A stretch of 64,000 nt of DNA from Longimicrobiales bacterium (GCA_965219445.1 CBDCNQ010000004.1:672001-736000); one strand, 5' to 3'. Shown: positions 49,724-64,000, counted from the stretch's first letter. Notes: a model not told the origin generated them from the sequence alone. Numbers and translations are program-made.

Positions 49724-50905
49724 GTGAATCTTCTCGAACATGCCCGATCGCTCGCCGCTGACCTCAGCGCGATACGTAGAGACCTTCATCAGCATCCGGA
49801 GCTTTCGTTCCAAGAAGTCCGAACGGCTGGGATAGCGGCGAAGGAGATGGAGGCGCTTGGCTTCTCCGTCCGTACGGGGATCGGTCGGACCGGGGTGATC
49901 GCCGACCTCGAAAATGGTGAGGGTCCCCTCATCGCGCTCCGTGCGGACATGGACGCCCTCCCCATAGAGGAGGCGAATACGCATGACTTCGTCTCCGAGA
50001 ACCCAGGTGTCATGCATGCCTGTGGGCACGATGGACACGTGGCGGGAATGATCGGAGCTGCCCGGATTCTGGCGAAGGAGCGAGATGCAAAGCGCCTCCC
50101 CTCCGGCACCATTCGCTTCATCTTCCAACCCTCCGAGGAGGCGACCGACGACGAGGGCAAGAGTGGGGCGATGCGAATGGTGGACGAGGGAGTGATGGAG
50201 GGTGTCGACGCCGTCGTTGGGCTGCATCTGGGGGGACCGCTCCCCAGTGGGAAGATCTTCTTCGCAGCGGGACCCATCATGGCTGGCGCCGCGGAGATCC
50301 ACATCGAAGTACATGGGGAAAGCAGCCACGCGGGAATGCCCGAGGCCGGTGTGGATGCGCTCGTGCTGGCGGCTCGGGGTGTGGTCGCGGCCCAAGACGC
50401 AGCGCCCAAGAACCGTTCCCCGGTCGAAGACGGACTCATTTCGTTCGGGCGAATTACGGGAGGCACCGCCACCAACGTCCTGGCAGACCATGTCGAGATC
50501 GAAGGGACCATGCGATTTTTCTCGGAGGAAACTCGGGAACGACTCCGACGCCGGTTGGACGAAGCGTTCGGAGTGCTGGAGGAATCGGGCGCCGGGGTCA
50601 GCATTGACATCGGAACCGGGATTCTTCCTGTGATCAATGACGACCGGGTGACCGAATGGGTACGAGCCGCGGCGGTTGATTTGGTGGGAGAAGACGACGT
50701 GCTACCGATCGAGCCCACGACGCTCGCAGAGGATTTCTCCTTCCTCGCGCACGAGGCACCAGGTACTTTTTTTTGGGTGGGGGCGGCACTACCCAGGCCG
50801 CGCATGCACCATGAAGCCGACTTCGATATCGACGAGTCGGCCCTTCCGGTAGGGGCCGCCACGCTGGCGGCGGGCGCCAGCCGTCTTCTCGACGAAATGG
50901 GGTGA
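49724..50905 (+). CDS. M20D family amidohydrolase
   Basis: RRDLHQHPELSFQE, LRADMDALPI, MHACGHDGH, FQPSEE, AEDF. Confidence 0.92.
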   Translation: MNLLEHARSLAADLSAIRRDLHQHPELSFQEVRTAGIAAKEMEALGFSVRTGIGRTGVIADLENGEGPLIALRADMDALPIEEANTHDFVSENPGVMHACGHDGHVAGMIGAARILAKERDAKRLPSGTIRFIFQPSEEATDDEGKSGAMRMVDEGVMEGVDAVVGLHLGGPLPSGKIFFAAGPIMAGAAEIHIEVHGESSHAGMPEAGVDALVLAARGVVAAQDAAPKNRSPVEDGLISFGRITGGTATNVLADHVEIEGTMRFFSEETRERLRRRLDEAFGVLEESGAGVSIDIGTGILPVINDDRVTEWVRAAAVDLVGEDDVLPIEPTTLAEDFSFLAHEAPGTFFWVGAALPRPRMHHEADFDIDESALPVGAATLAAGASRLLDEMG

Positions 50906-52668
50906 ACACGATGGCGCGTCTTGTGCTCCTGGGTCTTGCGCTGCTGGCAGGGGGCTGCACTGCGGCCGAACCAACCCCAGCCCCGCCCACCGAGGCAGTC
51001 CAGACCCGGCCTCCCGTCGTCTTTCCGGACACGTGGCGATTCCCGGCTGACGATGCCCCGGTGACCGCCGAAAACGCCGTGGCCGTGACCACGGATCGCT
51101 ACGCCAGCGAGGTCGGCGCGGCGATCATGGAGCGGGGTGGAAACGCCGTGGACGCGGCCGTGGCCGTTTCACTCGCGCTCGCCGTCGTGAACCCTGAAGC
51201 CGGCAACATCGGTGGCGGGGGATTCATGGTCGTGAGGATGGCGGACGGTACCACGGCGGCCCTCGACTACCGCGAGAAAGCACCTATGGCGGCCACACGG
51301 GACATGTTCCTGGACGGTGACGGGAACGTGACCGATAAGTCCATAGTCGGTCATCTGGCCTCGGGCGTACCGGGCTCTGTGATGGGTATGTCGGAGGCGC
51401 ACCGACGCTTCGGCACGCTTCCGTGGGCCGACCTCGTGGAGCCAGCCGTGTCACTGGCGGACGGCTTCGAGGTCCATGAGCGTTTCCGCGAAAATATTTT
51501 GAACTCCCAGCGGGGCCTCCGGCGCTTCGAAGCGACCGCCGCCACCTATCTCCCGGAGGGCCGGATCGTGGAGCTGGGCGAGACGTTCCGTCAGCCCCAG
51601 CTGGCGGCCACCTTGCGGCGAATCCGGGAGCAAGGTGTGGAGGGCTTCTACGGGGGAGAAACCGCCGACCTGATCGTGGCGGAGATGGAGCGTGGTGGGG
51701 GGCTCATCACACACCAGGACCTCTCGTCGTACCGCGCCGTGTGGCGTGACCCGATCGAATTTACCTACCGGGGATACACGGTCCTTTCGATGCCACCCTC
51801 GTCGTCCGGGGGAGCAACGATGGCCGAAATGGCCAACATCCTGGAGCGACACGATCTGGGCGGCGTTCCTTGGCACTCAGGCGACATGGTCCATCTGCTC
51901 ACGGAGGCTTGGAAGAGGTCGTACGCCGATCGGAATGCTTACCTGGCCGATACCGACTTCGTGGACATTCCGCTCGAACGCATGACGTCGAAGGCGTACG
52001 CGGCGGACCGCGGAGCCGACATCTCTGAGATCGCGACGCCCTCGACGGACGTCGGGCCCGGCCTGGCACCTCCCCGGGAGGGTGACAACACGACGCACGT
52101 CTCCTTGGTTGACGCTGAAGGGAACGCGGTCGCGTTGACGACGACGCTCAACTCCTTCTTCGGAAGTAAGGTGATGGTGACCGGAGCGGGTTTCGTTCTC
52201 AATAACGAGATGGACGACTTTACGGCCAAGCCGGGGGTACCGAACCAGTACGGGCTGGTCCAGGGGGCCAACAACGCAGTGGCTCCAGGCAAACGGATGC
52301 TCTCTGCGATGACCCCGACGGTGGTGCTCCGTCCCGACGGTGAGTTGTTTTTCGTCGCGGGCTCACCGGGAGGGGCTACGATCATCACGACCGTCTTCCA
52401 GGCGATCGTGAACGTCGTGGACTACGGGATGAACGTCGTTCAGGCGGTGAACGCACCCCGTGTCCACCACCAGCATCTCCCCGACCAGATCCGTTACGAG
52501 CCAGGCGGGTTGCTCCCGGAGGTGGTGTCGGATTTGGAGGCCCGGGGACACACGACGTCGGAGCGCAGTGACATCTCCGGAGACGTAGAGGCCATCATGG
52601 TCATGCCGGACGGGACGCTCGAGGCGGCGGCCGATCCGCGCCGCGGAGGCGCGGCCGTGGGCTGGTGA
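50902..52668 (+). CDS. ggt: Gamma-glutamyltransferase (lipoprotein)
   Basis: LAGGC lipobox, GGNAVDAA, NTTHVS, LNNEMDDF, LSAMTP, GSPGG. Confidence 0.94.
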   Translation: MNTMARLVLLGLALLAGGCTAAEPTPAPPTEAVQTRPPVVFPDTWRFPADDAPVTAENAVAVTTDRYASEVGAAIMERGGNAVDAAVAVSLALAVVNPEAGNIGGGGFMVVRMADGTTAALDYREKAPMAATRDMFLDGDGNVTDKSIVGHLASGVPGSVMGMSEAHRRFGTLPWADLVEPAVSLADGFEVHERFRENILNSQRGLRRFEATAATYLPEGRIVELGETFRQPQLAATLRRIREQGVEGFYGGETADLIVAEMERGGGLITHQDLSSYRAVWRDPIEFTYRGYTVLSMPPSSSGGATMAEMANILERHDLGGVPWHSGDMVHLLTEAWKRSYADRNAYLADTDFVDIPLERMTSKAYAADRGADISEIATPSTDVGPGLAPPREGDNTTHVSLVDAEGNAVALTTTLNSFFGSKVMVTGAGFVLNNEMDDFTAKPGVPNQYGLVQGANNAVAPGKRMLSAMTPTVVLRPDGELFFVAGSPGGATIITTVFQAIVNVVDYGMNVVQAVNAPRVHHQHLPDQIRYEPGGLLPEVVSDLEARGHTTSERSDISGDVEAIMVMPDGTLEAAADPRRGGAAVGW

Positions 52669-52695: not shown

Positions 52696-54537
52696 ATGAA
52701 TGAGATCCGCACCGTCCTCCCCTACTTCCGGCCGTACCGCACTGGCGTCATAGCGGGTCTGACGCTGGTCGTCGTCACCAATCTTTTCACGGTGGCAGGA
52801 CCGTACCTCATCAAGCTGTCCATCGACGGCCTGGGCGATCCGGATGTGACAATGGGCCGTATTTCGACCTACGCGCTCCTCATCGTGGCTGCCGCAGTTC
52901 TCGGAGGTGCCGCAAAGTACGGCATGCGGGAGCTTCTCAACGGTCTCAGCCGACGCATCGAGTGCGACCTCCGGAACGACTTTTTTTCACACCTCCTTCA
53001 GCTGGACGCGAGCTTCTACGGCGGAACGAGGACCGGGGATCTCATGGCCCGTGCCACGAACGACACGCAGGCGGTGCGGATGGCAACCGGGCCTGCCATC
53101 ATGTACTCGGTCAATACGCTCGTGAGCTTCCTGTTCGCTCTCGGATTCATGGTGTGGATCAGCCCGAGGCTCACGCTCTACGCCCTCATGCCAATCGTAT
53201 TCCTACCGCCGGTCGTGTTCGCGTTCGCGCGTGTGATCCACCAACGCTTCGAGAAGATTCAGGAGCAGTTCTCCACGCTCTCGACCATGGTGCAGGAAAA
53301 CCTGACAGGGATGCGCATCGTGCGGGCGTACGTCCAGGAGGAGAGTCAGTCACGGCACTTCGACGGCCTCAACCACCAGTACATGGACCGGAACATGGAC
53401 CTCGTGAAGGTGGCGGGCCTGTTCCACCCGATCCTGGCGCTCTTCTCGGGATCAGCGATGGTCGTCGTGCTTTGGCTCGGCGGTCTCGAAGTCGTTGCCG
53501 GACGCATCACGCTCGGCGACTTCGTCGCATTCGGGATCTACGTCGCGCTGCTCGTCTGGCCGCTCATCGCCCTGGGTTGGGTCGTCAACCTGTTCCAGAG
53601 AGGTGCGGCCAGCATGGGCCGCCTCAACAAGATCTTCGAGACCGAGCCAGCCATCCGCACCCCCGAGAACCCCGTGCGCCTCGCCGAACCGCGTGGCGGC
53701 GTCGAGTTCCGGGGAGTCTCGTTCCGCTATCCGGGCACGGAGAGGCTGGTGCTCGAGGACGTCTCTTTCACCGCCCATCCGGGTCAGACCGTGGCGGTCG
53801 TTGGTCCCACCGGCTCGGGCAAAACCACGCTCGTGGCGTTGATTCCCAGAATTTACGACGTGACGGGCGGCCACGTCCTGGTCGATGGTGTGGATGTGCG
53901 CGATCTGGACCCGGGGGACCTACGCTCGCTCATCGGCGTGGTGCCGCAGGATCCATTCCTCTTCTCGACGACCATCGAGGAGAACATCGGACTGGGACTC
54001 GACCTCGCCTCGGCATCGAGCGCAGAGGATTGGACCCAGGAGGAACGCCGGGCGCACAGCGTGCCGGAGGGCCCCATCGAAGACCCCGACGAAGCCGTCG
54101 TGGAGGCCGCCCGGGTCGCGCAGCTCGACGAGTCGATCCAGGGGTTCGCGAAGGGCTGGGAGACACTGCTCGGCGAGCGGGGAGTCAACCTTTCGGGGGG
54201 GCAGAAGCAACGCACCACGTTGGCCCGCGCCGTGGCGCGCGACCCAAGAATTCTCGTCCTGGACGATGCCCTGAGTGCTGTCGACACGCACACCGAGGCG
54301 CGCATTCTAGACGATCTGGCGCGCGTGATGGAAGGCCGGACTTTCTTCATCATCAGCCACCGCGTGTCAGCCGTGATGAACGCAGATCTCATTCTCGTTT
54401 TGGACGGTGGCCGGATCGTGGAACGGGGCCGGCACGCCGACCTCATCACACTGGGGGGGACCTACGCCCAGCTGTTGCACCGGCAAATGCTCGAGCAGGA
54501 TATCGAGTCCACACCTGTGGGTGCGGCTGGGGACTGA
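52696..54537 (+). CDS. ABC exporter, fused permease/ATPase (MdlA-like)
   Basis: TM domain, GPTGSGKT, LSGGQKQR, LVLDDALSAVD. Confidence 0.92.
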   Translation: MNEIRTVLPYFRPYRTGVIAGLTLVVVTNLFTVAGPYLIKLSIDGLGDPDVTMGRISTYALLIVAAAVLGGAAKYGMRELLNGLSRRIECDLRNDFFSHLLQLDASFYGGTRTGDLMARATNDTQAVRMATGPAIMYSVNTLVSFLFALGFMVWISPRLTLYALMPIVFLPPVVFAFARVIHQRFEKIQEQFSTLSTMVQENLTGMRIVRAYVQEESQSRHFDGLNHQYMDRNMDLVKVAGLFHPILALFSGSAMVVVLWLGGLEVVAGRITLGDFVAFGIYVALLVWPLIALGWVVNLFQRGAASMGRLNKIFETEPAIRTPENPVRLAEPRGGVEFRGVSFRYPGTERLVLEDVSFTAHPGQTVAVVGPTGSGKTTLVALIPRIYDVTGGHVLVDGVDVRDLDPGDLRSLIGVVPQDPFLFSTTIEENIGLGLDLASASSAEDWTQEERRAHSVPEGPIEDPDEAVVEAARVAQLDESIQGFAKGWETLLGERGVNLSGGQKQRTTLARAVARDPRILVLDDALSAVDTHTEARILDDLARVMEGRTFFIISHRVSAVMNADLILVLDGGRIVERGRHADLITLGGTYAQLLHRQMLEQDIESTPVGAAGD

Positions 54538-54650
54538 GACACAGCGGGGACGCGGGGGCAGCAGGCGAAGAAGACACGGCAGGAACTGGAGAGTCGTCGT
54601 GGGCGTTCCTCGGTTGAGAGTCTTGTCCCGAAGCATGCTGGAGCACCCTC

Positions 54651-54980
54651 TTGAGTACCATCCGACTTACGCATGCCCCGAGCGGTACGATCCTGGCTGA
54701 GGGCCCGAAGGGCTTGGGTGGTGTCACGCCGTTCGAGGGCAACTTCTACGTTCGGCGGAAGTACCTCCTCACCGACGCCCTTAAGGCGAACGGCGTGCCC
54801 GGGCTGTGCCCCTACAAGTTCCTGTACGTGTGGCTGGATCTGAAACTCGAGGGTTGGGAGCCCTCGAAGTTCATAGGCTGGCTCTACTGGCTACCGAACC
54901 CGCTCCTGCCGTTCATCTGGTGGAGGGTGGCGCTTCCGGGGAATCACCCCGAGGTACACGTGGAAGTGTTGGAGGACTGA
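54651..54980 (+). CDS. Hypothetical protein (possibly DUF427-like)
   Basis: GGAG upstream of TTG; FEGNFYV and CPYK motifs. Confidence 0.5.
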   Translation: MSTIRLTHAPSGTILAEGPKGLGGVTPFEGNFYVRRKYLLTDALKANGVPGLCPYKFLYVWLDLKLEGWEPSKFIGWLYWLPNPLLPFIWWRVALPGNHPEVHVEVLED

Positions 54981-55083
54981 GGGTCCGCCTTCATCCCCAG
55001 CCACCTGGCCCCAGCCCGGCGGCAGCCCTAATCTCTCCATCGGGGCCCAGGGTTCTTACCACGAAAGATGAACGGAGCCATCC

Positions 55084-55341
55084 ATGATCGATCCGTCGTC
55101 GGCCCGGATTCGGTTGGTGCTCGGAGTGCTATTTCTGGCCGCTCTCGCCCCACCGCTAGCCGGTTCGGCCCAGACTCCGCAGGGGGGCGACTCGGTCCTC
55201 GCCACTCCCCGCCAGAGCTACGACGCAAGTGCGTTTCGAGCGTTCTCATTTCTCAGGCAGCAGACTCCACTGATCTCGGTGACGGTGGCGAAGTCCGACG
55301 AGACCACCAGAACGCTCATTGGCCTGGGCTTCTCCTTCTGA
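55084..55341 (+). pseudogene. Internally deleted remnant of a kinase/Omp85 barrel gene (paralog of 58512-61085)
   Basis: Signal peptide + GDSVLATPRQSYDASAF joined directly to a barrel C-terminus ISVTVAKSDETTRTLIGLGFSF*. Confidence 0.7.
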
Positions 55342-55409
55342 CCGTGGCAGAACGCACGACGCCGGGCGGGATCACGACGAAGGAGGATCCGAGCGAAGTC
55401 AGGCTCGGC

Positions 55410-57527
55410 GTGTCCGCCGTGGAGGAGCGCTACGTCAACCGGGAGCTGAGCTGGCTTTCGTTTAACGAACGGGTGCTCCAGGAGGCCGAGAGTTCTTCGG
55501 TGCCGCTTTTGGAGCGTATCAAGTTCCTCGCCATTTTCTCCTCCAACCTCGATGAGTTCTTCCGTGTACGGGTAGCGTCCCTGAGGAGCCTTCTCCGGCT
55601 CCGCCGGAAGAAGCGGAAGAAGAAGGGGTTGGATCCGACCAAACTGCTTCGTGAGATCCATGCCCTGGCCTTGGCCCAACAGGAGCGCTTCGGCCAAACA
55701 TTCCGTGATGACATCCTTACGGGACTGCAGGACGTGGGTATCCACCTGATCGGCGAGGGAGGGGCCGATGAAGAACATCGGGCAATCGTGGAAGAATACT
55801 TCGTCGAATACGTGGCTGAGTTCCTGGAGCCGGTGATCCTAGGGCGGGAAGACACACCACCCTTCCTCAAGGACCACACATCGTATCTGGTGGCGGAGCT
55901 GCAACCCGGCCCCGGGATCGAAACGCGCAACGCAACCTCTGAGCTGGGAATCGTCGAAGTCCCCAGCCCACCCTTGCCTCGGTTCTTGTCGGCCCCTGTG
56001 CCCGGCGAAGGCCGAAACATCGTATTCTTGGACGATATCATCCGCCTGAATCTTCACCGCGTGTTTCCAGAACGTGTGGTTTCGGGCGCGTACGCGATAA
56101 AGGTTTCGAGAGACGCGGACCTCTACCTGGATGACGAATTCGACACCGGCCTGCGCCAAGCAATCAAGAAGAGCCTGGGGAAGCGGGCCACGGGCACCCC
56201 CATCCGTTTTCTGTACGACATGCGTTCCCCGCACACCGTGGTCACCCGACTTTCGAGCTCCTTCGGACTCGGAGAGGGAGACCTGATCGAGGGAGGCCGC
56301 TACCACAACCTCAACGACCTCACCGGGCTCCCCGTGGGCGATCTTCCGGAGTTGGAGTATGCCCCGCTGGAGCCTCTTCCCCACCCCACACTGGAGGGTG
56401 GCCCATCGTGCCTGGATCTGATCCGGATCAAGGATCGTCTACTCCATTTTCCGTACCAGTCCTACGCGTATGTGGTGCGCCTTCTTCAGGAGGCTGCCGC
56501 GGACCCGGATGTGGAGGAGATCTGGATTTCGCTTTACAGGGTTTCCAGTGACTCCACGGTCGTACAGGCTCTGATCGAGGCAGTTGAAAAAGGCAAGGAA
56601 GTGACGGCTTTCGTCGAGTTTCAGGCCCGGTTCGACGAGGAACTAAATCTGGAATGGGCCGAGCGCATGGAGCTGGCCGGCATCCGCGTGATCCACGGGA
56701 CACGGGGCATCAAGGTCCATGCGAAGCTATGCCTGATCCGTCGCCAAGAGGGTGATGCAGGCCGCTTGTATGCGTTGCTCTCCACGGGCAACTTCAATGA
56801 AAAGACGGCTCGTGTTTACTCCGACCACGGACTCATGACGGCGGACCCACGACTCACGGTAGAGGTTCATCGCGTCTTTCGCCTCTTATTCGGAGAGGAG
56901 GTCGACGGCGGAAAGGAGGTCGAGCCCGAGTTCGAACATCTCTTGGTCGCCCCCCACCATCTTCGAGACGGCTTCAACGCCCTCATCGACGCCGAAATAG
57001 AGGCCGCGCAGCAGGGACGGCCATCGGGTATTACCGCCAAGATGAACAGCCTCCAAGACCGTGGCATCATTGACAAGCTGTACGACGCGAGCGCGGCCGG
57101 CGTGCCGGTTCGACTTGTGATTCGCGGGATCTGCTGCCTGCGTCCCGGGGTCGAGGGACTCAGTGACTCGATTGAGGTCACAAGCATCGTGGACCGGTTC
57201 TTGGAGCACTCTCGGATTTTCGTGTTCCACTCGGGCGGCGCCGAGAAGCTGTACCTCGCATCCGCCGATTGGATGACGCGAAACCTGAACCGACGGGTCG
57301 AAGTAGCATTCCCCATCTACGATCCCGACGTGCGCGAGGAACTTCTCCACGTTCTCGATCTACAGTGTGCCGATAACACCAAGGCACGGATCATCGATGA
57401 GCACCAACGGAATGCCTTCGTCCAGGAAACCGACGGAGCCACGGTACGCAGTCAGTTTGACACGCACCGATATTTGAGAGAACTCTTGGCAGATCATCCA
57501 GCGGTTGATTGGGTACTGAAGGAATGA
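55410..57527 (+). CDS. ppk1: Polyphosphate kinase 1
   Basis: NRELSWLSFNERVL, SSNLDEFFRVRV, LLHFPYQSY, ARFDEE, KVHAK, TGNFN, RFLEHSR, SADWMTRNL; start 55410 or 55344. Confidence 0.96.
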   Translation: MSAVEERYVNRELSWLSFNERVLQEAESSSVPLLERIKFLAIFSSNLDEFFRVRVASLRSLLRLRRKKRKKKGLDPTKLLREIHALALAQQERFGQTFRDDILTGLQDVGIHLIGEGGADEEHRAIVEEYFVEYVAEFLEPVILGREDTPPFLKDHTSYLVAELQPGPGIETRNATSELGIVEVPSPPLPRFLSAPVPGEGRNIVFLDDIIRLNLHRVFPERVVSGAYAIKVSRDADLYLDDEFDTGLRQAIKKSLGKRATGTPIRFLYDMRSPHTVVTRLSSSFGLGEGDLIEGGRYHNLNDLTGLPVGDLPELEYAPLEPLPHPTLEGGPSCLDLIRIKDRLLHFPYQSYAYVVRLLQEAAADPDVEEIWISLYRVSSDSTVVQALIEAVEKGKEVTAFVEFQARFDEELNLEWAERMELAGIRVIHGTRGIKVHAKLCLIRRQEGDAGRLYALLSTGNFNEKTARVYSDHGLMTADPRLTVEVHRVFRLLFGEEVDGGKEVEPEFEHLLVAPHHLRDGFNALIDAEIEAAQQGRPSGITAKMNSLQDRGIIDKLYDASAAGVPVRLVIRGICCLRPGVEGLSDSIEVTSIVDRFLEHSRIFVFHSGGAEKLYLASADWMTRNLNRRVEVAFPIYDPDVREELLHVLDLQCADNTKARIIDEHQRNAFVQETDGATVRSQFDTHRYLRELLADHPAVDWVLKE

Positions 57528-58312
57528 GAAACGACCAAGAGCGGGCAGGCGGCAGGGTGAAATCCGATCAAGTTGACGCAGACCCGGAAGGCGACGCAGG
57601 GGAGACCACCCCAGATGTGGCACCTGACACGGTTCAGGGAGCAGTAGCGACGGCGGCGTCAGACAATGCCGATGCCACGCGGGAGGATGCCGAGGTCGAC
57701 TCGAAGAAGAAGAAAAAAAAGGATTCAGGGCTCGGATCGTCGCGAGGCATCGAGACCATGTTCCGGACCAGCTATCGTGTCCACCAGGATTTGGTCAGCC
57801 TGGCCGACACGAAAGCCAACATCATGATCAGCGTGAACGGGCTGATTATCTCGATCATTCTGGCCGCGGTCTCGCCCCGGATCGGCGGGCTACCCCTTCT
57901 CGTCCTCCCTACGAGCATCCTCCTCATAGGCTGTGTGACCGCGCTCGTATACGCCGTTCTGGCGGCGAGGCCACGCGTGAGCAACACTCCTCTGACCCTG
58001 GAGGATATCGCGCGGAACGATGCCAACATCCTGTTCTTCGGAAATTTCGTGAATCTTTCCGAAGCAGAATTCGTGGAGGGGATGCGCGACCTCATGCTGA
58101 CGCAGGACCACCTTTACGTAAACATGGTGCGAGACCTCTACGGGCTCGGGCAGGTGCTCAAAACCAAGTTCCAGCTCCTGCGGGTCTCCTATACCGTCTT
58201 CATGTTCGCCCTGGTGTTGGGCGTGGGACTGTTCGTCGTGGTGTTCGCTCTCGACGCGACCATCGCCAGGGACTTGCTCGAGCCGCAGGGGGCGCTCCCG
58301 CTTCTCCCGTAG
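57524..58312 (+). CDS. Pycsar-effector-like (PycTM/DUF5706) membrane protein
   Basis: RGIETMFRTSYRVHQDLVSLADTKANIMISVNGLIIS, LAARPRV, NILFFGNF, DLYGLGQVLKTKFQLLRVSYTVFM; 3 TM helices; ATGA overlap with ppk1. Confidence 0.8.
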   Translation: MRNDQERAGGRVKSDQVDADPEGDAGETTPDVAPDTVQGAVATAASDNADATREDAEVDSKKKKKKDSGLGSSRGIETMFRTSYRVHQDLVSLADTKANIMISVNGLIISIILAAVSPRIGGLPLLVLPTSILLIGCVTALVYAVLAARPRVSNTPLTLEDIARNDANILFFGNFVNLSEAEFVEGMRDLMLTQDHLYVNMVRDLYGLGQVLKTKFQLLRVSYTVFMFALVLGVGLFVVVFALDATIARDLLEPQGALPLLP

Positions 58313-58511
58313 TCACGTCGGCGGATTAGGCGGCCAGCCCTTCTTGCGTGGGTTCCATGGCGCTCGCAGGTTAACCCTGATTCAGACATCGGCCGTTTGG
58401 GATGAGCAGCTTCCGGTGACCGCGACAAACAACTTGATGGTTGAATCGTGGCGGGCTTTGGGCGCACGTCGGCTGGAGGCCGACTGCTTCACCGTCGTGG
58501 TGGAGAGGCGT

Positions 58512-61085
58512 ATGCGCCGATTCGTGTCGGTAGTCTTGGCTTGCTCGCTGCTCGCCCCATCGCTCAGCGCCCAGGCAGGTGGGCCTGCCCCGCCCACAAG
58601 CGACTCCGTCACGGTCGTTTCCGGGCAACAATACGAAGCCGGCGGCCTGTTCATGACCTTCATGGGCCGTGGGTACCGCGACCTTTGGACCACACCCATC
58701 CGCGTGCCCGTGGCCGACCTGTCCCTGTGGGGTGGCGGCGGGTTGACGCCCTTCGATGTCGGCGGTGGCTTGACCACACAGACGCTCCACCTCCGCGGAG
58801 CCGACGGCAGACGCTACGTACTACGATCGGTAGACAAGTTTCCCGGAGCGTTGGGCGAGGAACTGCAGGGAACCCCGGTCGAGGCGCTCATTCAGGACCA
58901 GTTGTCCTCATTTCACCCGTCGGGAGCCGTGATCACGGCAAGGCTTCTCGAAGCGGTCGGTGTACTCCATCCGCAACCACAACTCGTCCACGTCCCGGAT
59001 AGCCCGCTGCTAGGGGAGTACCGCGAGCAGTTCGCCGGTATGCTGGCGCTCTTCGAAGAGCGGCCGGACGATCTGCCCGATGGAGAGGCCGGCTTCGCCG
59101 GCTCTCGACGGATCGAGCAGACCCCCGACCTGTTCGATGAGCTCGAAGAGGATCCCGGGGATCGCGTAGACCTCTATGAGCTACTCAAGGCTCGCCTGAT
59201 CGACATCCTGGTAGGTGACCGTGATCGTAGTGAGAACAACTACCTCTGGGCTCGATTCGACGATGTGGACGGCGGATACGTCTGGCGTCCCGTTCCCCGT
59301 GACCGGGATCAGGCATTCGTACGGTTCGATGGCGTCCTGAAGAGTATCGGCCGTTCTTACGACCGGCGTCTCGTCCGTTTCGGCGAAGATTACCCGGATA
59401 TACGGGGGCTCACCCGGAACGCCTGGGACATCGATCGCAATCTCCTGGTCGGGCTCGATCGAGCCACCTGGAATGCCACGGTAGAAGAGGTAGCCGCCTC
59501 GCTCACGGATGACGTGATCAGAGAGGCCGTCTCGCGTATGCCTCCAGAGCACTACGCAATTCTGGGGCCCGACCTCGAGGCAAAACTGAGGAGTCGTCGT
59601 GACGACTTAGCGGAGGCGGCTCGCGAATTCTACGAGATCGTTTTCGAGTGGTCCGATATTCATGCCACAGACGAAGACGAAGTGGCAACGATAGACCATC
59701 TCGAGGACGCAAGCATTCGTGTCTTGCTGCAGGAACGCGGTCCGAACGCGGAGCCACAGGGCTCGCCGCACTTCGAGCGCGTATTCTTCCCGGACGAGAC
59801 CCGAGAGATCCGGATCTACCTTCACGGCGGGGACGACCTGGCCCGAATCCGTGGCGCCGGCAATTCACCGATTGATATCCGCCTCGTTGGTGGCGGTGGC
59901 CGGGACGAGTTCGTCAACTCGTCTGCTGCGCGTGGGATCCGAGTCTTCGATGCCGGCGATGCCACGGTGAGGACCGGTCCAGGCATACGGTTCGCGAATC
60001 GGGGAGCCCCTCGCCCCTGGTCGTGGGCCGGTGAGTCTCTTCGCGTATTGGATTGGGGATCCCAGACTTCCCCCCAGGTCCGGATGGGGTTCGACGTCGA
60101 CCGTGGACTCATGTTAAACGTCGGCCTCAAGCAGACGACCTACGGCTTCCTCACCTACCCCTACTACTTGCGCACCCAGACGAGCGTCGGATGGGCGTTC
60201 GGACGATCGAAACCGTTCGTGGACTATAGGCAGTACTTCCGGGGCCTGTTCCGGGGTAGTGCGGATCTCAGCCTCCGAGCCAGCTACTCGGGAGTGGACG
60301 TGGTCAACTTTTATGGCTTGGGCAACGAGACCATAAAGGACGGGCCTTCAGACTTCTTCAAGGTGGATCAGGGTCAGTTCGTCTTTACCGGAACGCTGAG
60401 CTTCGGCGACGGCGAGAAGACGGAACTGGCCATCGGTCCTGTCTTCAAGCGGACCACATCCGACACGACGGGCACCGACAATTTTGTCGCGGACCGACAG
60501 CCGTATGGATCCGGAACGTTGTTGCAACTCGGAGTTCAGGCTTCACTCGACCAGGACGGGCGAGACCACCCGACATGGCCCACGAGGGGTTACCACCTTA
60601 CAGCGGGTACTGCTTACTACCCCGAAGTCCTCGATCTGGAGAGTTCTGTCGTGGAGGCCCACGGGGAGATTGCGGCCTTCCTGTCTCCCAGTGGCGGGAA
60701 CCCCACTCTGGCTACTCGCGTTGGGGGAAAACGCCTGTGGGGTGCGATGATCCCCTACTATGAGGCCGCCTTCCTCGGAGGGTCCGACAACATACGGGGA
60801 CCCCGCGAACAGCGCTTTGCCGGGCGCTCATCTCTCTACGGCAGTGCCGAGTTGAGAGTCGGCCTCGGGCGTTTCTTCTTCCTTTTCCCTGCCGACTTCG
60901 GGCTCTTCGGGTTCGGCGATGTGGGCCGCGTGTTTGAAGAGGGCACCCGGTTCGACGAATGGCACACCTCGTACGGCGGGGGCATCTGGTTCGCACCGGT
61001 GTTACGGGCGAACACCTTACAGGTATCGATGGCCAGGAGTGGGCAGCGAACGGCCATATACTTTGGGCTCGGCTTCGCCTTTTAG
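58512..61085 (+). CDS. Secreted atypical-kinase-like domain fused to a BamA/TamA (Omp85) barrel
   Basis: Signal peptide; GGGLTTQTLHL...YVLRSVDK; DILVGDRDRSENNYLW; PRDRDQAF; barrel motifs LGGSDNIRG, FGDVGRV, YGGGIWF, terminal GLGFAF. Confidence 0.75.
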   Translation: MRRFVSVVLACSLLAPSLSAQAGGPAPPTSDSVTVVSGQQYEAGGLFMTFMGRGYRDLWTTPIRVPVADLSLWGGGGLTPFDVGGGLTTQTLHLRGADGRRYVLRSVDKFPGALGEELQGTPVEALIQDQLSSFHPSGAVITARLLEAVGVLHPQPQLVHVPDSPLLGEYREQFAGMLALFEERPDDLPDGEAGFAGSRRIEQTPDLFDELEEDPGDRVDLYELLKARLIDILVGDRDRSENNYLWARFDDVDGGYVWRPVPRDRDQAFVRFDGVLKSIGRSYDRRLVRFGEDYPDIRGLTRNAWDIDRNLLVGLDRATWNATVEEVAASLTDDVIREAVSRMPPEHYAILGPDLEAKLRSRRDDLAEAAREFYEIVFEWSDIHATDEDEVATIDHLEDASIRVLLQERGPNAEPQGSPHFERVFFPDETREIRIYLHGGDDLARIRGAGNSPIDIRLVGGGGRDEFVNSSAARGIRVFDAGDATVRTGPGIRFANRGAPRPWSWAGESLRVLDWGSQTSPQVRMGFDVDRGLMLNVGLKQTTYGFLTYPYYLRTQTSVGWAFGRSKPFVDYRQYFRGLFRGSADLSLRASYSGVDVVNFYGLGNETIKDGPSDFFKVDQGQFVFTGTLSFGDGEKTELAIGPVFKRTTSDTTGTDNFVADRQPYGSGTLLQLGVQASLDQDGRDHPTWPTRGYHLTAGTAYYPEVLDLESSVVEAHGEIAAFLSPSGGNPTLATRVGGKRLWGAMIPYYEAAFLGGSDNIRGPREQRFAGRSSLYGSAELRVGLGRFFFLFPADFGLFGFGDVGRVFEEGTRFDEWHTSYGGGIWFAPVLRANTLQVSMARSGQRTAIYFGLGFAF

Positions 61086-61171
61086 TGTGGTGGTCGCGGA
61101 GTCGGCGTGCCGACGAAATTTCTGCGCCAATGCTGACCCTCAACGTGAACTCGACTCGATTCGCAGACGCG

Positions 61172-62044
61172 ATGAGGCAAATCTGGACCTTCACGGTTCT
61201 CTCGGTCGTTGTTTCACCGATTGCCTTGTTTGCCCAGGATTGGGCGCTCGAGGCCGACCTCGAGCTGGCGAGCCACTACGAGTGGCGTGGTTTGCAGTTG
61301 GATCCGGGGCACAACGTCCAGCACGCCGTATATGGGTCTCTAGCCTGGCGTGAGATGATCTTGACGGCGGGGGTTTGGTCGCTAACGGATCTGTCGGCGG
61401 AAGCGGCGGTCGGCCTTCCGCGGCGCTGGGCCTTCGAGACGAACCCTTGGATCGAAGCCTCGTTGGGTGGGAACCGAGGTCACCTAGTGGCGGGGCTTAC
61501 ACGATATGCCTTCCGAAGTCCAGATCCGGGGACGGTCTTCAGGAGAGGGAACACCTGGGAGGTGTACGCCGGGGCACGAGGCGCCATGCCCGGGGCTCCC
61601 CTGCTGGGTGAGGCAACCGTCTTTTGGGACGTCGACCGGGTCGGCGGAGTCTATGGCGAACTCGCCGCCATACTTCAGATCCCGGTTTGGGTTGGACTGG
61701 TCGTGCCCATCGGATCGATGTTTCTGGAGGGCCGGAGTGGTTTCGCCCTGGGACAGGAACGCAGTGTCGACGACACCGACCCTTCCAACTACCTCTTTGA
61801 GGACCGGGGCATCACACACGTCGACGTCTCGCTTCGCACCACGCTTCTGCCGGTCCCCGCCGGTCCGTTCTCCGCGTCACTTACCCTGGATGCCCACTGG
61901 GCCCGGGGCCTGGATCCGGAGACGAAACGACTGGGGGTGCGAGTCGCCGGGAGTCGCGACAGGACCCGGTGGTGGTGGGGCTTTGGGTTACGATTCACCC
62001 TTCCTCGTTGCCGTCCAGAAAGAGAGCTATGTCAAGATCTGTAA
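61172..62044 (+). CDS. Putative outer-membrane beta-barrel (TorF/TIGR02001-like)
   Basis: Signal peptide, LASHYEWRGL N-terminal strand, alternating aromatic strands, WWWGFGLRF. Confidence 0.55.
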   Translation: MRQIWTFTVLSVVVSPIALFAQDWALEADLELASHYEWRGLQLDPGHNVQHAVYGSLAWREMILTAGVWSLTDLSAEAAVGLPRRWAFETNPWIEASLGGNRGHLVAGLTRYAFRSPDPGTVFRRGNTWEVYAGARGAMPGAPLLGEATVFWDVDRVGGVYGELAAILQIPVWVGLVVPIGSMFLEGRSGFALGQERSVDDTDPSNYLFEDRGITHVDVSLRTTLLPVPAGPFSASLTLDAHWARGLDPETKRLGVRVAGSRDRTRWWWGFGLRFTLPRCRPERELCQDL

Positions 62045-64000
62045 GCAGCGGAACGATCAACGGCACCGAAGCCAGGACCCTGTCGCTCATGGGAGCGCTG
62101 GGAATCATCGGAGTGCTGGGACTCAGCGGGTGCGCCTCCATCCAGGAGACGGCGCTTCCCCAGCCGGTCTCTCCGCCCCCCACCGCCCCACCCCCCGCGC
62201 CTGTGCCGGGCGGCCTCCTCGCGGGGTTTGGTGCTCGAGACATCACACCACCGCCGGGCGTGGGGATGAATGCCTTCTCTGCCGACAGCCGGCAGGCGGC
62301 AGGCTTTCGGCAACGGCTGTACGCACGGGCGATCGTCTTAGAGGATGACTCGGGCGAGCGCGTCGCGTTGGTGGTCGCCGATCTCGGAATGGTCTCGCTC
62401 CTCCTCCATCGCAGAGTGGCCGATCGAACTCTTCGGTCAGGGACTGGGATCGGAGCCGACCGTCTGCTCCTCTCCGCGACCCACACGCATTCGGGTCCAG
62501 GGAATTTCTTCGCGGCCGACGGATACAACGCCAACGCCGGACGCTTCGCCGGCTTCGACCCCGTAGTCACGGATTTCCTGATCGATCGGATCGCCGGTGC
62601 GATCGAGGATGCGGCTTTGGATCTGCAACCCGCCCGAGCGGGTTGGCGCTTCGAGCCGGTCTGGGATTTCACGTTCAACCGGAGCTACGAAGCATATGAG
62701 CGGAACACGTCTCCGCGCGTGACAGTCAATCCCGTTGCGGCCCGCCCGTTGGATCAGCAGGCGGTCGACTCCACCTTCGTGCTCCTCCGCATAGATCGCT
62801 GCGACACTCAGTGGCAGAACTGCGCACCCCGCGGCGCTTACGGTGTGTTTCCCATTCACAGTAGTAACATCCCGGCCTCCAACAACCTCTTCGACTCAGA
62901 CATCCATGGCGTAATCGCACGGACGGTCGAGGACCATATCCGGGGGGTCCGGAGCGGTGGGGCAGGCCCGGCGGCGGCAGGTGTGATTGCCGGCGGCGAG
63001 GCTTTTTTCCTCCTCGCCCAGGGCGCCCACGGGGACGTGGGCGCGAACCTGCGGGACCCGGTTCCGTGCAGGTTATACCGCTTCCTACCGGAACGTCGGC
63101 CGGCCGGTCCCAGAACCCTCCCGGCTCCAGAAGCGTGGCGGGCACCGATGTCCGAGGTCGAATCCTGTCTCGACGAGACGCGGCTCGAGGTGGACTCTTT
63201 CGCGTCGGCCCTTGGAGCTCGCGCCACGGGAATCTTCGACCGTGCCGCTCCCGCTCTCTCATCGGACCTGTCTATCGGGCGCGCGTTCGCTTCCGTAGAC
63301 CTTCGAACCTACACCGGGCCGCACCAGACCTGTTGGCCGCCCCGAATGGGTGCCGCCGGGGTTGGTGGTGCGGAGAAGGGCTACATCCGGACATGGAAGC
63401 AGCGCTTGTTCTTCTTCAATATGAACTTCGACGAGGGCGGATCGGCCGCACGGGATACGCCCGACGGCTGCTTCGGGCATAAGAAAGTCCAGCTCCCCAT
63501 GTTGATCAAAGAATACACGCTACCTCAAGTTTTTCAGTTCGGCGTGTACAGGCTGGGTGATGTCCTGATGGGGTCAGTACCGGTAGAGCCGACGACCGAG
63601 GTCGGCGCTCTGATACGGGAAACCCTCCTCGTGAGCGCGCCGGACGGCGTCGAACGCGCCCTAGCGATCAGTCTGGCCAACGGCTACGCAAGCTACGTTG
63701 CCAGTGCCGAGGAATACGAGGCACAACACTACGAGGGAGGCTCGACGCTGTACGGGCCCAACACGGCCGAAATGATCGCGTACGAGTTGGGGCAGTTGGC
63801 CGCCAGCCTAAGTAGCGGGAGTCCGACCGTATCCGTGAACACCGCTCAGGCATTTCATGCGGAAAGCCCCAGTCATTTTTGGGCGCCCCGTCCGATTCCG
63901 GCGGAGTTCCCCCGAGAGGTACTCGACGGGGTCTGCAGTGCGGAGGAGGTTCGAATCCGATGGGCCGACCTCAGACCAGGCACGCTGGTCCCGGCGGACG
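62029..64000 (+). CDS. Neutral/alkaline ceramidase family lipoprotein (runs off window end)
   Basis: Manual translation: LSGC lipobox, AGFGARDITPP, RLYARAIVL, LSATHTHSGPG, SLANGYASYVASAEEYEAQHYEGGSTLYGP; not in ORF track because no stop lies in the window. Confidence 0.85.
   Translation, partial: MSRSVSSGTINGTEARTLSLMGALGIIGVLGLSGCASIQETALPQPVSPPPTAPPPAPVPGGLLAGFGARDITPPPGVGMNAFSADSRQAAGFRQRLYARAIVLEDDSGERVALVVADLGMVSLLLHRRVADRTLRSGTGIGADRLLLSATHTHSGPGNFFAADGYNANAGRFAGFDPVVTDFLIDRIAGAIEDAALDLQPARAGWRFEPVWDFTFNRSYEAYERNTSPRVTVNPVAARPLDQQAVDSTFVLLRIDRCDTQWQNCAPRGAYGVFPIHSSNIPASNNLFDSDIHGVIARTVEDHIRGVRSGGAGPAAAGVIAGGEAFFLLAQGAHGDVGANLRDPVPCRLYRFLPERRPAGPRTLPAPEAWRAPMSEVESCLDETRLEVDSFASALGARATGIFDRAAPALSSDLSIGRAFASVDLRTYTGPHQTCWPPRMGAAGVGGAEKGYIRTWKQRLFFFNMNFDEGGSAARDTPDGCFGHKKVQLPMLIKEYTLPQVFQFGVYRLGDVLMGSVPVEPTTEVGALIRETLLVSAPDGVERALAISLANGYASYVASAEEYEAQHYEGGSTLYGPNTAEMIAYELGQLAASLSSGSPTVSVNTAQAFHAESPSHFWAPRPIPAEFPREVLDGVCSAEEVRIRWADLRPGTLVPAD

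Follow-up and report, generated by a model that had tools for sequence, protein, structure and literature searches.

The window analyzed here is a 64,000 nucleotide stretch of DNA from a Longimicrobiales bacterium (GCA_965219445.1 CBDCNQ010000004.1:672001-736000; the genome is termed G000). It contains a conserved module of three genes: an accessory ppk1 gene (polyphosphate kinase 1), an overlapping gene for a membrane protein of the PycTM family, and a gene for an outer membrane protein in which a predicted atypical kinase-like domain is fused to an Omp85-type barrel (termed the kinase-Omp85 or kinase-barrel protein). The gene set is co-conserved in two phyla, i.e. Gemmatimonadota and Ignavibacteria. 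With respect to function, we see an even chance that the module hands polyphosphate, or phosphoryl groups from polyphosphate, over from the cytoplasmic side of the inner membrane to the envelope. The arrangement had been noticed earlier from the nucleotide sequence (termed the original prediction), and the overall interpretation given at that time is partly supported by the present analysis.

The PycTM clade consists of 14 Gemmatimonadota loci, which are all of the high-scoring loci (at least 96 bits) that were found via PycTM itself in the genomes searched. A ppk1 gene is directly adjacent to the PycTM gene and on the same strand in eight of the 14 loci and is within 3.5 kb in nine, and a kinase-Omp85 gene is within 5 kb in ten. 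The lower-scoring PycTM loci display no partner genes (0/8) and their neighbours are unrelated. PycTM was found in 21 of 401 genomes sampled from the phylum, and among 41 related genomes the kinase-barrel family is present in 22, PycTM in 12 and PPK1 in 28.

Sister families of the same order have a kinase-barrel gene together with DUF4956, an exported metallophosphoesterase and a long PPK1 that carries a CYTH-like N-terminal extension. No homology was found between PycTM and DUF4956 (hhalign probability 0.3%), thus two unrelated small membrane proteins appear to fill the same role. A search of the window genome for PF09359, the VTC-type polymerase, gave no match. The only DUF4956 gene of G000 is on contig 5 (L156:7201-8310) and is not beside ppk1 or the kinase-barrel gene; a group II intron reverse transcriptase/maturase (L156:2468-3970) is about 3 kb from it.

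When one-genome-per-species contigs were scanned with the alignment of the kinase domain, at least 590 relatives were found. The best 79 loci were examined, and partner genes were scored by tblastn; these loci are the closest relatives and not a random sample. They are from Gemmatimonadota (46), Ignavibacteria (11), Latescibacterota (8), Poribacteria (3), metagenome-assembled genomes (MAGs) labelled Bacteroidota (3), Acidobacteriota (2), and KSB1, Chlorobium limicola and Calditrichaceae (one each), and three are unlabelled. DUF4956 is present in 37 of the 79 loci, an SdiA/phytase-like propeller in 36, PPK1 in 27, a metallophosphoesterase in 24, two or more kinase-barrel genes in 13 and PycTM in seven (six of which also have PPK1). 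No partner was found in 24, and 18 of these 24 loci are shorter than 18 kb.

The seven PycTM loci comprise six from Ignavibacteria and one from Longimicrobiales, and six of the seven have PPK1 together with a SixA-like phosphatase, the latter with NCBIfam sixA scores of 46–61 bits that are below the cut-off of 74.5. In Ignavibacteria PycTM is fused to an HD domain and the whole gene set is kept. For example, the order in L146 is cyclase-TPR, kinase-barrel, propeller, metallophosphoesterase, kinase-barrel, PPK1, SixA-like phosphatase and HD-PycTM. A neighbourhood of this type had been mentioned for Bacteroidota in the original prediction, and it does exist in this ignavibacterial locus. The original prediction had also made its case depend on co-conservation of the three genes in other genomes, and this holds in both phyla. 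Export signals (signal peptide or lipobox) are present in three of four metallophosphoesterases and in five of five propellers, and in none of the SixA-like phosphatases.

The long open reading frame at positions 55068–57527 displays the PPK1 N, middle, C1 and C2 Pfam domains in order at amino acid (aa) positions 122–796, and its score with the NCBIfam model TIGR03705 is 750.4 bits (curated cut-off 465.85). By its sequence the product is a member of the polyphosphate kinase 1 family and is predicted to synthesize polyphosphate from ATP. Since the PPK1 domains begin only at residue 122, the true start of the gene is probably near a GTG at position 55410. Position 55084, the start given in the original prediction, belongs to the relic open reading frame described below and not to ppk1. 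Residues K435, V436, H437, K439, E599 and H600 are unchanged in the 14 PPK1 sequences of the clade; these include the invariant histidines of the KVHAK motif (H437) and of the LEH motif (H600). We take the KVHAK and the second HKD-type histidine motifs to correspond to the catalytic residues of E. coli PPK1.

PPK1 genes are found in one or two copies per genome. G000 has two, together with one PycTM gene and one kinase-barrel gene. The second ppk1 is on contig 3 (L158:5290-9791) between genes for a SixA-like histidine phosphatase and a CHAD-domain protein, and looks like an ordinary polyphosphate-storage locus. In a maximum-likelihood tree of 39 PPK1 sequences, with context labels assigned after the loci had been inspected, 12 PycTM-linked PPK1s and two others are on one side of a branch that has a support of 100/100. 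The two others are from G003 and L090, and in L090 the gene is beside a cyclase-TPR gene and a barrel gene. This side includes the window ppk1 and spans Gemmatimonadota and Ignavibacteriota. The opposite side contains the DUF4956/CYTH-linked PPK1s and the second ppk1 of the window genome.

Natural fusions link the first two genes of the module. A search for longer PycTM relatives returned 41 proteins, and two of these, P0125 (935 aa) and P0126 (922 aa), consist of a complete PPK1, a Lys/Glu-rich linker and PycTM, thus the order of domains is the order of the genes. P0126, from Longimicrobiaceae, bears the NCBI name “polyphosphate kinase 1, partial”. P0138 (973 aa, found on three contigs) has the same PPK1-linker-PycTM layout as P0125. 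The PPK1 parts of P0125 and P0126 are in the PycTM-linked branch (52–55% identity vs 40%), and that of P0138 is nearest to a DUF4956-linked PPK1 (52%). As the PPK1 of P0138 is from the other branch, the fusion arose at least twice. From the natural fusions a contact between PPK1 and the PycTM protein may be proposed. In P0129, PycTM is followed by a C-terminal phytase-like domain, to whose family the propeller lipoproteins of the clusters also belong; this domain would be periplasmic, given an N-terminus inside the cell and three helices. P0123 is a partial sequence among the longer relatives.

The PycTM protein matches PF18967 (formerly DUF5706) with a score of 98.0 bits (cut-off 27.2, E = 5.3e-28) and the PADLOC PycTM model with 65.1 bits. 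Hydropathy shows three transmembrane segments at about aa positions 98–116, 125–143 and 225–243. The family assignment made in the original prediction is therefore correct. The sequence starts with a variable acidic N-terminus, followed by a lysine run, K61–K66 (nucleotide positions 57704–57721), and then a conserved cytoplasmic helix. All 14 clade members have three hydrophobic segments and display 6–10 lysines within 12 residues directly before the invariant core/cytoplasmic helix, and the alignment of the 14 shows 40 invariant positions in the three-segment core. The lysine run is conspicuous against a genome of about 63% G+C and, by its sequence, is a candidate polyphosphate-binding site. 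A Pfam search at E-values up to 0.01 gave no domain for binding of cyclic nucleotide monophosphates (cNMP) in the window protein; binding of a cyclic nucleotide may occur through the conserved cytoplasmic loop.

The third gene of the module is preceded by a ribosome-binding site, GGAGAGG, in front of the start at position 58512, and the encoded protein has a signal peptide at aa positions 1–22. An AlphaFold2 model of the whole protein made from 36 homologues has a predicted local distance difference test score (pLDDT) of 84.7 and a predicted template modelling score (pTM) of 0.81. Foldseek comparison of the barrel gave E-values of 7e-13 with TamA and about 1e-10 with BamA, and the region of the loop-6 motif also aligns. 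A search of PDB sequences with the family profile gave Omp85 barrels only, including a POTRA-domain Omp85 chain, 9ccg (E = 1.6e-4). The C-terminal part is thus predicted to be an Omp85 barrel of the BamA/TamA type. The window protein lacks any Pfam match, also to the Omp85 model PF01103, which is matched by 30 of the 36 family members, and its score with the NCBIfam Omp85_fam model, 71.2 bits, is below the cut-off of 200. Ahead of the barrel are the kinase fold and an all-beta domain; no POTRA domain was recognised there, the all-beta domain not having been searched alone.

Foldseek comparison of the full-length model gave barrels only, and the N-terminal domain was therefore folded separately (pLDDT 89.1, pTM 0.90). 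With this model, VIA-align gave Z-scores of 14.9 for PI4KII-alpha, 14.4 for CotH (251 residues aligned, 17% identity), 13.2 for CtkA, 11 for HipA and 10.8 for Fam20, and Foldseek gave E-values of 1.1e-6 for CtkA and 1.4e-5 for CotH. In the ESM Atlas the nearest clusters are unnamed; CotH and HipA have a score of 0.76, which is a lead only. The domain is predicted to have a protein-kinase-like fold of the PI3/4K-CotH-CtkA-HipA group. Residues K109, D236, D238, R239, D264 and D266 are invariant in the 36 family members, and the family consensus reads GDWDRHxDQWRWA ... PIPRDRDxAF. K109, D236, D238, D264 and D266 would represent the conserved Lys, the catalytic-loop Asp and the metal-binding Asp of the kinase fold. 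Pfam, NCBIfam and PADLOC gave no name for the kinase-like domain of the window protein. The description in the original prediction of a co-directional signal-peptide protein with an atypical kinase-like domain and an Omp85 barrel is borne out by the AlphaFold2 models and by the Foldseek and VIA comparisons.

The kinase-barrel family is large. Among 1.84 billion representative sequences it has 3,833 representatives (50%-identity clusters) at E-values up to 0.001 and 1,933 at E-values up to 1e-30, and the length is mostly 840–880 aa. In a Latescibacterota chromosome a patatin-Omp85 gene of PlpD-like layout (L083:7101-9350) is directly upstream of the kinase-Omp85 gene. At another locus (L120:8533-16439) the kinase-Omp85 gene is flanked by two MFS genes that match the TLC ATP/ADP transporter, and its open reading frame apparently continues into a eukaryote-type protein-kinase domain.

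The region ahead of ppk1 contains the remains of a second kinase-Omp85 gene. When the family profile was compared with all 953 six-frame open reading frames of at least 40 aa in the window, the open reading frame at positions 55072–55338 was the second-best match after the intact gene (E = 9.9e-5). It matches the profile in two colinear pieces, at profile positions 12–58 and 836–863, and consists of the signal peptide and about 50 N-terminal residues joined to the last ~28 residues, with a beta-signal-like ending. BLASTP comparison with the two ends of the intact gene gave E-values of 0.003 and 0.03. By its sequence the relic is the product of an in-frame deletion of roughly 770 residues. In G019 a kinase-barrel gene is located before ppk1, and the C-terminus of the relic likewise matches the end of that gene (tblastn E = 1.8e-6). 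The genomes G019, G419 and G195 have an intact kinase-barrel gene before ppk1 in the position of the relic, which shows that the earlier reading as a deleted second copy was right. In G001 and G008 the trio is intact and the relic is absent, and G005 has only a distant barrel at the locus.

One further protein, P0124 (800 aa) from a close relative, has a PycTM part that is 93% identical. It was considered as a PPK1-PycTM fusion and was rejected, as its PPK1 part is without C2 and is joined to PycTM by a garbled stretch rich in Arg and Pro. It is probably due to a frameshift or deletion at the gene overlap and is then another sign of decay at the locus.

Coordinates of the module and of its neighbours are in Table 1.

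Table 1. Features of the module region, in order of position in the window
Feature	Position	Strand	Amino acids	Remarks
Gamma-glutamyltranspeptidase gene	50902–52668			Pfam; window neighbour
ABC exporter gene	52696–54537	+		Open reading frame order, Pfam
Open reading frame, family unknown, module membership uncertain	54651–54980	+	109	Upstream of relic
Relic open reading frame, second kinase-Omp85 copy	55084–55341	+	85	
ppk1, accessory paralogue	55410–57527	+		Polyphosphate kinase 1; start inferred, GTG 55410
PycTM-family three-helix inner membrane protein	57524–58312	+	262	PF18967, formerly DUF5706
Kinase-Omp85 outer membrane protein	58512–61085	+	857	Signal peptide; AlphaFold2 model
Predicted atypical kinase-fold domain	58599–59651		about 30–380	Part of kinase-Omp85 protein
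All-beta linker domain	59652–60011		about 381–500	Part of kinase-Omp85 protein
Omp85-type barrel, 16-strand	60057–61082		about 516–857	Part of kinase-Omp85 protein
Signal-peptide protein, no known family	61127–62044	+	305	Possibly outer membrane
Neutral/alkaline ceramidase gene	61969 to window end (63999)	+		Ceramidase_alk, 182 bits

The ppk1 stop codon is at positions 57525–57527 and the ATG of the PycTM gene is at 57524–57526, thus the open reading frame coordinates confirm the ATGA overlap of the two genes that had been noted earlier. The 109 aa open reading frame and the 305 aa signal-peptide protein display no Pfam or NCBIfam match. A homologue of the former is in the same position in G008 (89% identity), and another (L131:4983-5294, 56% identity) is located between kinase-Omp85 genes in a MAG labelled Bacteroidetes; it is possible that the open reading frame adds another small part to the module. 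The order kinase-barrel gene, signal-peptide protein and ceramidase is also found in G001, G005 and G006. This order is kept even where ppk1 and PycTM are missing, and the linkage was seen only in the genus. Three separate lineages (the window; L049:2-1360; L129:15787-17745) have a gamma-glutamyltranspeptidase gene a few kb away from the module. Scans of positions 54400–62200 showed no excess of promoters (0 sites vs 1.6 in shuffled sequences) or of terminators (5 sites vs 4.9).

The original prediction termed the PycTM protein an orphan, i.e. without a cyclase partner. This is correct inside the window; however, the nearest cyclase-domain gene of the genome is just outside the window, 5,959 bp past the PycTM stop codon with three genes between. 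Three class III cyclase-domain genes follow the ceramidase gene (L157:3272-8477, which is 736271-741476 of G000 contig 4). The first encodes a 350 aa protein with a Guanylate_cyc score of 57.6 bits. The other two are convergent cyclase-FlgO-like-TPR genes, and no other gene of the genome matches the cluster-linked cyclase-TPR protein better (64% and 59%). Eight of the 14 PycTM-clade loci, the window genome counted, have a class III cyclase-domain gene at a distance of no more than 6 kb from PycTM, and a cyclase-TPR gene heads the cluster in L044, L056, L057 and L058. The same gene is the first of the cluster in seven of the 11 Ignavibacteria loci. The cyclase-TPR family is multi-copy in the window genome (26 matching pieces), and proximity to PycTM is therefore weaker evidence. 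The cluster-linked cyclase-TPR proteins score only 13–27 bits with the PADLOC PycC models, which are weak generic matches. The overlapping partner of the PycTM gene is ppk1 and not a PycC/PucC cyclase, thus the pair is not of the Pycsar/Pucsar type. The term orphan is too strong, and a cyclic nucleotide may plausibly regulate the module.

In the mechanism that we propose, the PycTM protein would keep PPK1 at the membrane, with the N-terminus and the lysine run of the former facing the cytoplasm, where the lysine run could bind polyphosphate. Six PycTM subunits would assemble into a cylinder around a central channel, as in EcPucTM (see below), and the nascent chain or a signal would reach the periplasm. 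The kinase-fold domain, either periplasmic or exported through its own barrel, would then use or attach polyphosphate where ATP is scarce; the cell envelope is such a place. In related clusters a cyclic nucleotide from the cyclase-TPR proteins may control the gating of the membrane protein. The mechanism of export or envelope phosphorylation in the original prediction may likewise be conjectured from these data. A fuller version is possible and rather doubtful, namely a trans-envelope polyphosphate conduit. Here a chain made by a dedicated PPK1 would pass through a hexameric PycTM channel (DUF4956 in the sister systems). The Omp85-borne kinase-fold enzyme, at the surface or in the periplasm, would take its phosphoryl groups from polyphosphate rather than ATP, or would attach the whole chain to an acceptor in the envelope. 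A nucleotide from the TPR-cyclase would gate the channel, and the PycTM pores of defence systems would be offshoots of, or the source for, a housekeeping polyanion channel.

Several observations weigh against passage of polyphosphate into the envelope by this module. The support is wholly computational, from sequence and predicted structures. Within the stretches covered, ppk1 was not seen in five of the 14 loci of the PycTM clade, nor in 52 of the 79 kinase-Omp85 loci; the latter include all eight Latescibacterota and all three Poribacteria loci, which have DUF4956 and the propeller only. The window locus is without an exported phosphoesterase. The kinase domain of the window protein reads GDRDRSENN, where a Ser replaces the His of the consensus GDWDRHxDQ, and the Pfam CotH model (PF08757) is matched by one of the 36 family members (E = 3.8e-5) and not by the window protein. 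The module is patchy and decaying within the genus: PycTM is present in three of 12 genus genomes searched (G000 counted), the kinase-barrel gene of G006 is 5′-truncated with no ppk1 or PycTM beside it, and the window itself carries the relic. The literature searched has no record of polyphosphate export by PPK1-type systems, and to our knowledge the PycTM family has been tested for a role in phage defence only. As the family has been tested in defence only and cyclase genes are also present here, a signalling or pore role of the PycTM protein without polyphosphate transport is possible.

Such a role is the core of the first alternative, a housekeeping circuit unrelated to defence, in which the product of the TPR-cyclase opens or regulates PycTM, the phosphoesterases (HD, metallophosphoesterase and MBL fold) are phosphodiesterases, and PPK1 is a regulated output or a buffer of energy or phosphate, with no polyphosphate crossing the membrane. 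It would account for the class III cyclase-domain genes within 6 kb of PycTM (8/14) and the leading position of cyclase-TPR in Ignavibacteria (7/11), for the HD domain (PF01966) in 15 of the 41 longer PycTM relatives, and for the MBL-fold genes beside PycTM or ppk1 in L055, L058 and L052. It also agrees with known family members, which respond to cyclase products in the accessible part of one report (bioRxiv 10.64898/2026.08.12.744502). However the low PycC scores of the cyclase domains, the multi-copy nature of cyclase-TPR and the lack of a Pfam cNMP-binding domain in the window PycTM all argue against it, and most DUF4956-type clusters are without the cyclase even though PPK1, the phosphoesterase and the kinase-barrel gene are all retained. 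In addition, the metallophosphoesterases and propellers bear export signals and thus cannot degrade a cytoplasmic messenger. We therefore regard this circuit as rather unlikely. A second alternative is scavenging and storage of phosphate, where exported phosphoesterases and phytase-like propellers would free phosphate outside the cell, the barrel would bind or admit phosphorylated compounds, and a PycTM-anchored PPK1 would store polyphosphate in the cytoplasm. Metallophos (with a PhoD-like match in L099), phytase-like/SdiA-regulated, His_Phos_1 and PAP2 proteins recur in the clusters, and most of these phosphate-related proteins have export signals. A membrane anchor alone could also explain the PPK1-PycTM fusions, because E. 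coli PPK1 is a peripheral membrane enzyme. A plain anchor, however, needs no three-segment core with 40 invariant positions across 14 members, and the genome already has a storage-type ppk1 with CHAD and SixA-like neighbours. The window locus, again, is without a phosphoesterase, and the Lys and Asp residues invariant in 36 members of the kinase-fold family suggest catalysis rather than binding. A parallel Gram-positive trio, compared below, affects a surface polysaccharide phenotype and not phosphate uptake, as far as the accessible text of that study describes (PMC12345266). Scavenging is, on balance, unlikely.

A Pycsar-type anti-phage system, with PycTM as a suicide pore and PPK1 as a second effector that drains ATP, is very improbable. 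It could be argued from the matches to the PycTM models of Pfam and PADLOC, from the patchy spread (12/41 relatives and 21/401 genomes of the phylum) and from the cyclase genes nearby. The overlapping partner, however, is ppk1 and not a cyclase, two phyla share the synteny with envelope genes, and grouping within the PPK1 branch follows lineage. Genes of ordinary metabolism (gamma-glutamyltranspeptidase, ABC exporter and ceramidase) surround the module in the window, and a PADLOC scan of ppk1, the kinase-barrel gene and the 60959–62044 open reading frame gave nothing above 18.4 bits, the best being weak DrmC/PLD matches of PPK1. Chance adjacency of three functionally unrelated genes deserves hardly any credence. 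Partnerless kinase-barrel loci (24/79) and the eight low-scoring PycTM loci with unrelated neighbours speak for it, yet two phyla have the same gene order, a stop codon and the next start codon overlap, PPK1 forms a separate branch, and PPK1-PycTM fusions that arose twice contradict it. With only one or two copies of PPK1 per genome, chance would place the gene in far fewer than the observed 27 of 79 windows (about 20 kb each).

Passage of polyphosphate or its phosphoryl groups into the envelope, if correct, would touch two open questions, i.e. how phosphoryl chemistry occurs outside the cytoplasm where ATP is scarce, and how polyphosphate arrives at the cell surface in species that show surface polyphosphate. 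The module joins a dedicated PPK1, a membrane protein of a hexameric-channel family, exported phosphoesterases and a large unannotated family of outer membrane kinase-fold proteins. The natural PPK1-PycTM fusion is a single polypeptide suited to a direct test of polyphosphate translocation, and the Pycsar/Pucsar effector family would gain a non-defence relative.

With respect to known systems, the literature searched contains no paper that names “DUF5706” and none that joins “PycTM” and “polyphosphate”. For CotH, polyphosphate and kinase together, the pel papers alone are relevant, and among the matches listed DUF4956 is addressed in the pel paper only. EcPucTM, of the same 3TM family as PycTM, is described in the accessible part of its report as a hexamer with three helices per protomer, in which TM2 lines a channel of ~15.2 Å, and as having a CNBD (cyclic-nucleotide-binding domain) for cyclic-nucleotide sensing (bioRxiv 10.64898/2026.08.12.744502). 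A hexamer with a channel is the shape that the proposed mechanism needs. The module protein resembles the Pycsar/Pucsar effectors in its Pfam family (98 bits; pJV1-SpdB3 3TM), in its three helices and in the cyclase-domain genes near many relatives. Unlike these effectors, its gene overlaps ppk1, it has a lysine run and no detected cNMP-binding domain, some of its relatives are fused to PPK1, HD or phytase-like domains, and its synteny across phyla is with envelope genes and not defence islands.

In the eukaryotic VTC complex, polyphosphate is made on the cytoplasmic side, and this synthesis is coupled to movement of the chain through an oligomer whose subunits have three helices each. The likeness to the proposed model is in the functional scheme only, with no sequence or family relation; VTC has a TTM catalytic domain and a DUF202 membrane domain and delivers the chain to a vacuole, whereas the module has PPK1 and PF18967 and would act toward the periplasm. 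PlpD is a type Vd autotransporter with an N-terminal patatin enzyme before an Omp85-type barrel. The kinase-Omp85 protein likewise has an enzyme domain ahead of such a barrel, but of predicted kinase fold and not patatin. Its barrel is nearest to TamA and BamA, with no POTRA recognised. The N-terminal domain matches the fold of CotH (5JDA), CtkA (3AKJ/3AKK), PI4KII-alpha (4PLA) and HipA over 210–258 residues with Z-scores of 11–14.9, and keeps the conserved Lys, a DRH-like catalytic loop and a second Asp-x-Asp motif. It differs from these atypical kinases in the low identity (9–18%), the barrel fusion and the signal peptide in front.

A close parallel is an accessory group beside Gram-positive pel loci, which comprises a secreted CotH-like kinase, a polyphosphate polymerase and DUF4956 in the accessible text of the paper (PMC7112168). 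Deletion of the kinase-like or the membrane gene lowers Pel-dependent aggregation, and no mechanism is given in the accessible part of that study (PMC12345266). The module differs in that no pel genes are nearby, its synthase is PPK1 and not a VTC/TTM polymerase, and its membrane protein is PycTM and not DUF4956, so that it is outside the trio as defined. The kinase-fold domain is fused to an Omp85 barrel, unlike that of the trio, because the cell has an outer membrane. Both nevertheless combine an enzyme that makes polyphosphate with a secreted protein of atypical kinase fold and a small membrane protein of the multi-pass type, and DUF4956 itself is used with the kinase-barrel gene and PPK1 in sister clusters of the phylum. 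The unexplained Gram-positive trio of CotH, polyphosphate polymerase and DUF4956 would thus gain a Gram-negative counterpart, and one experiment could inform both.

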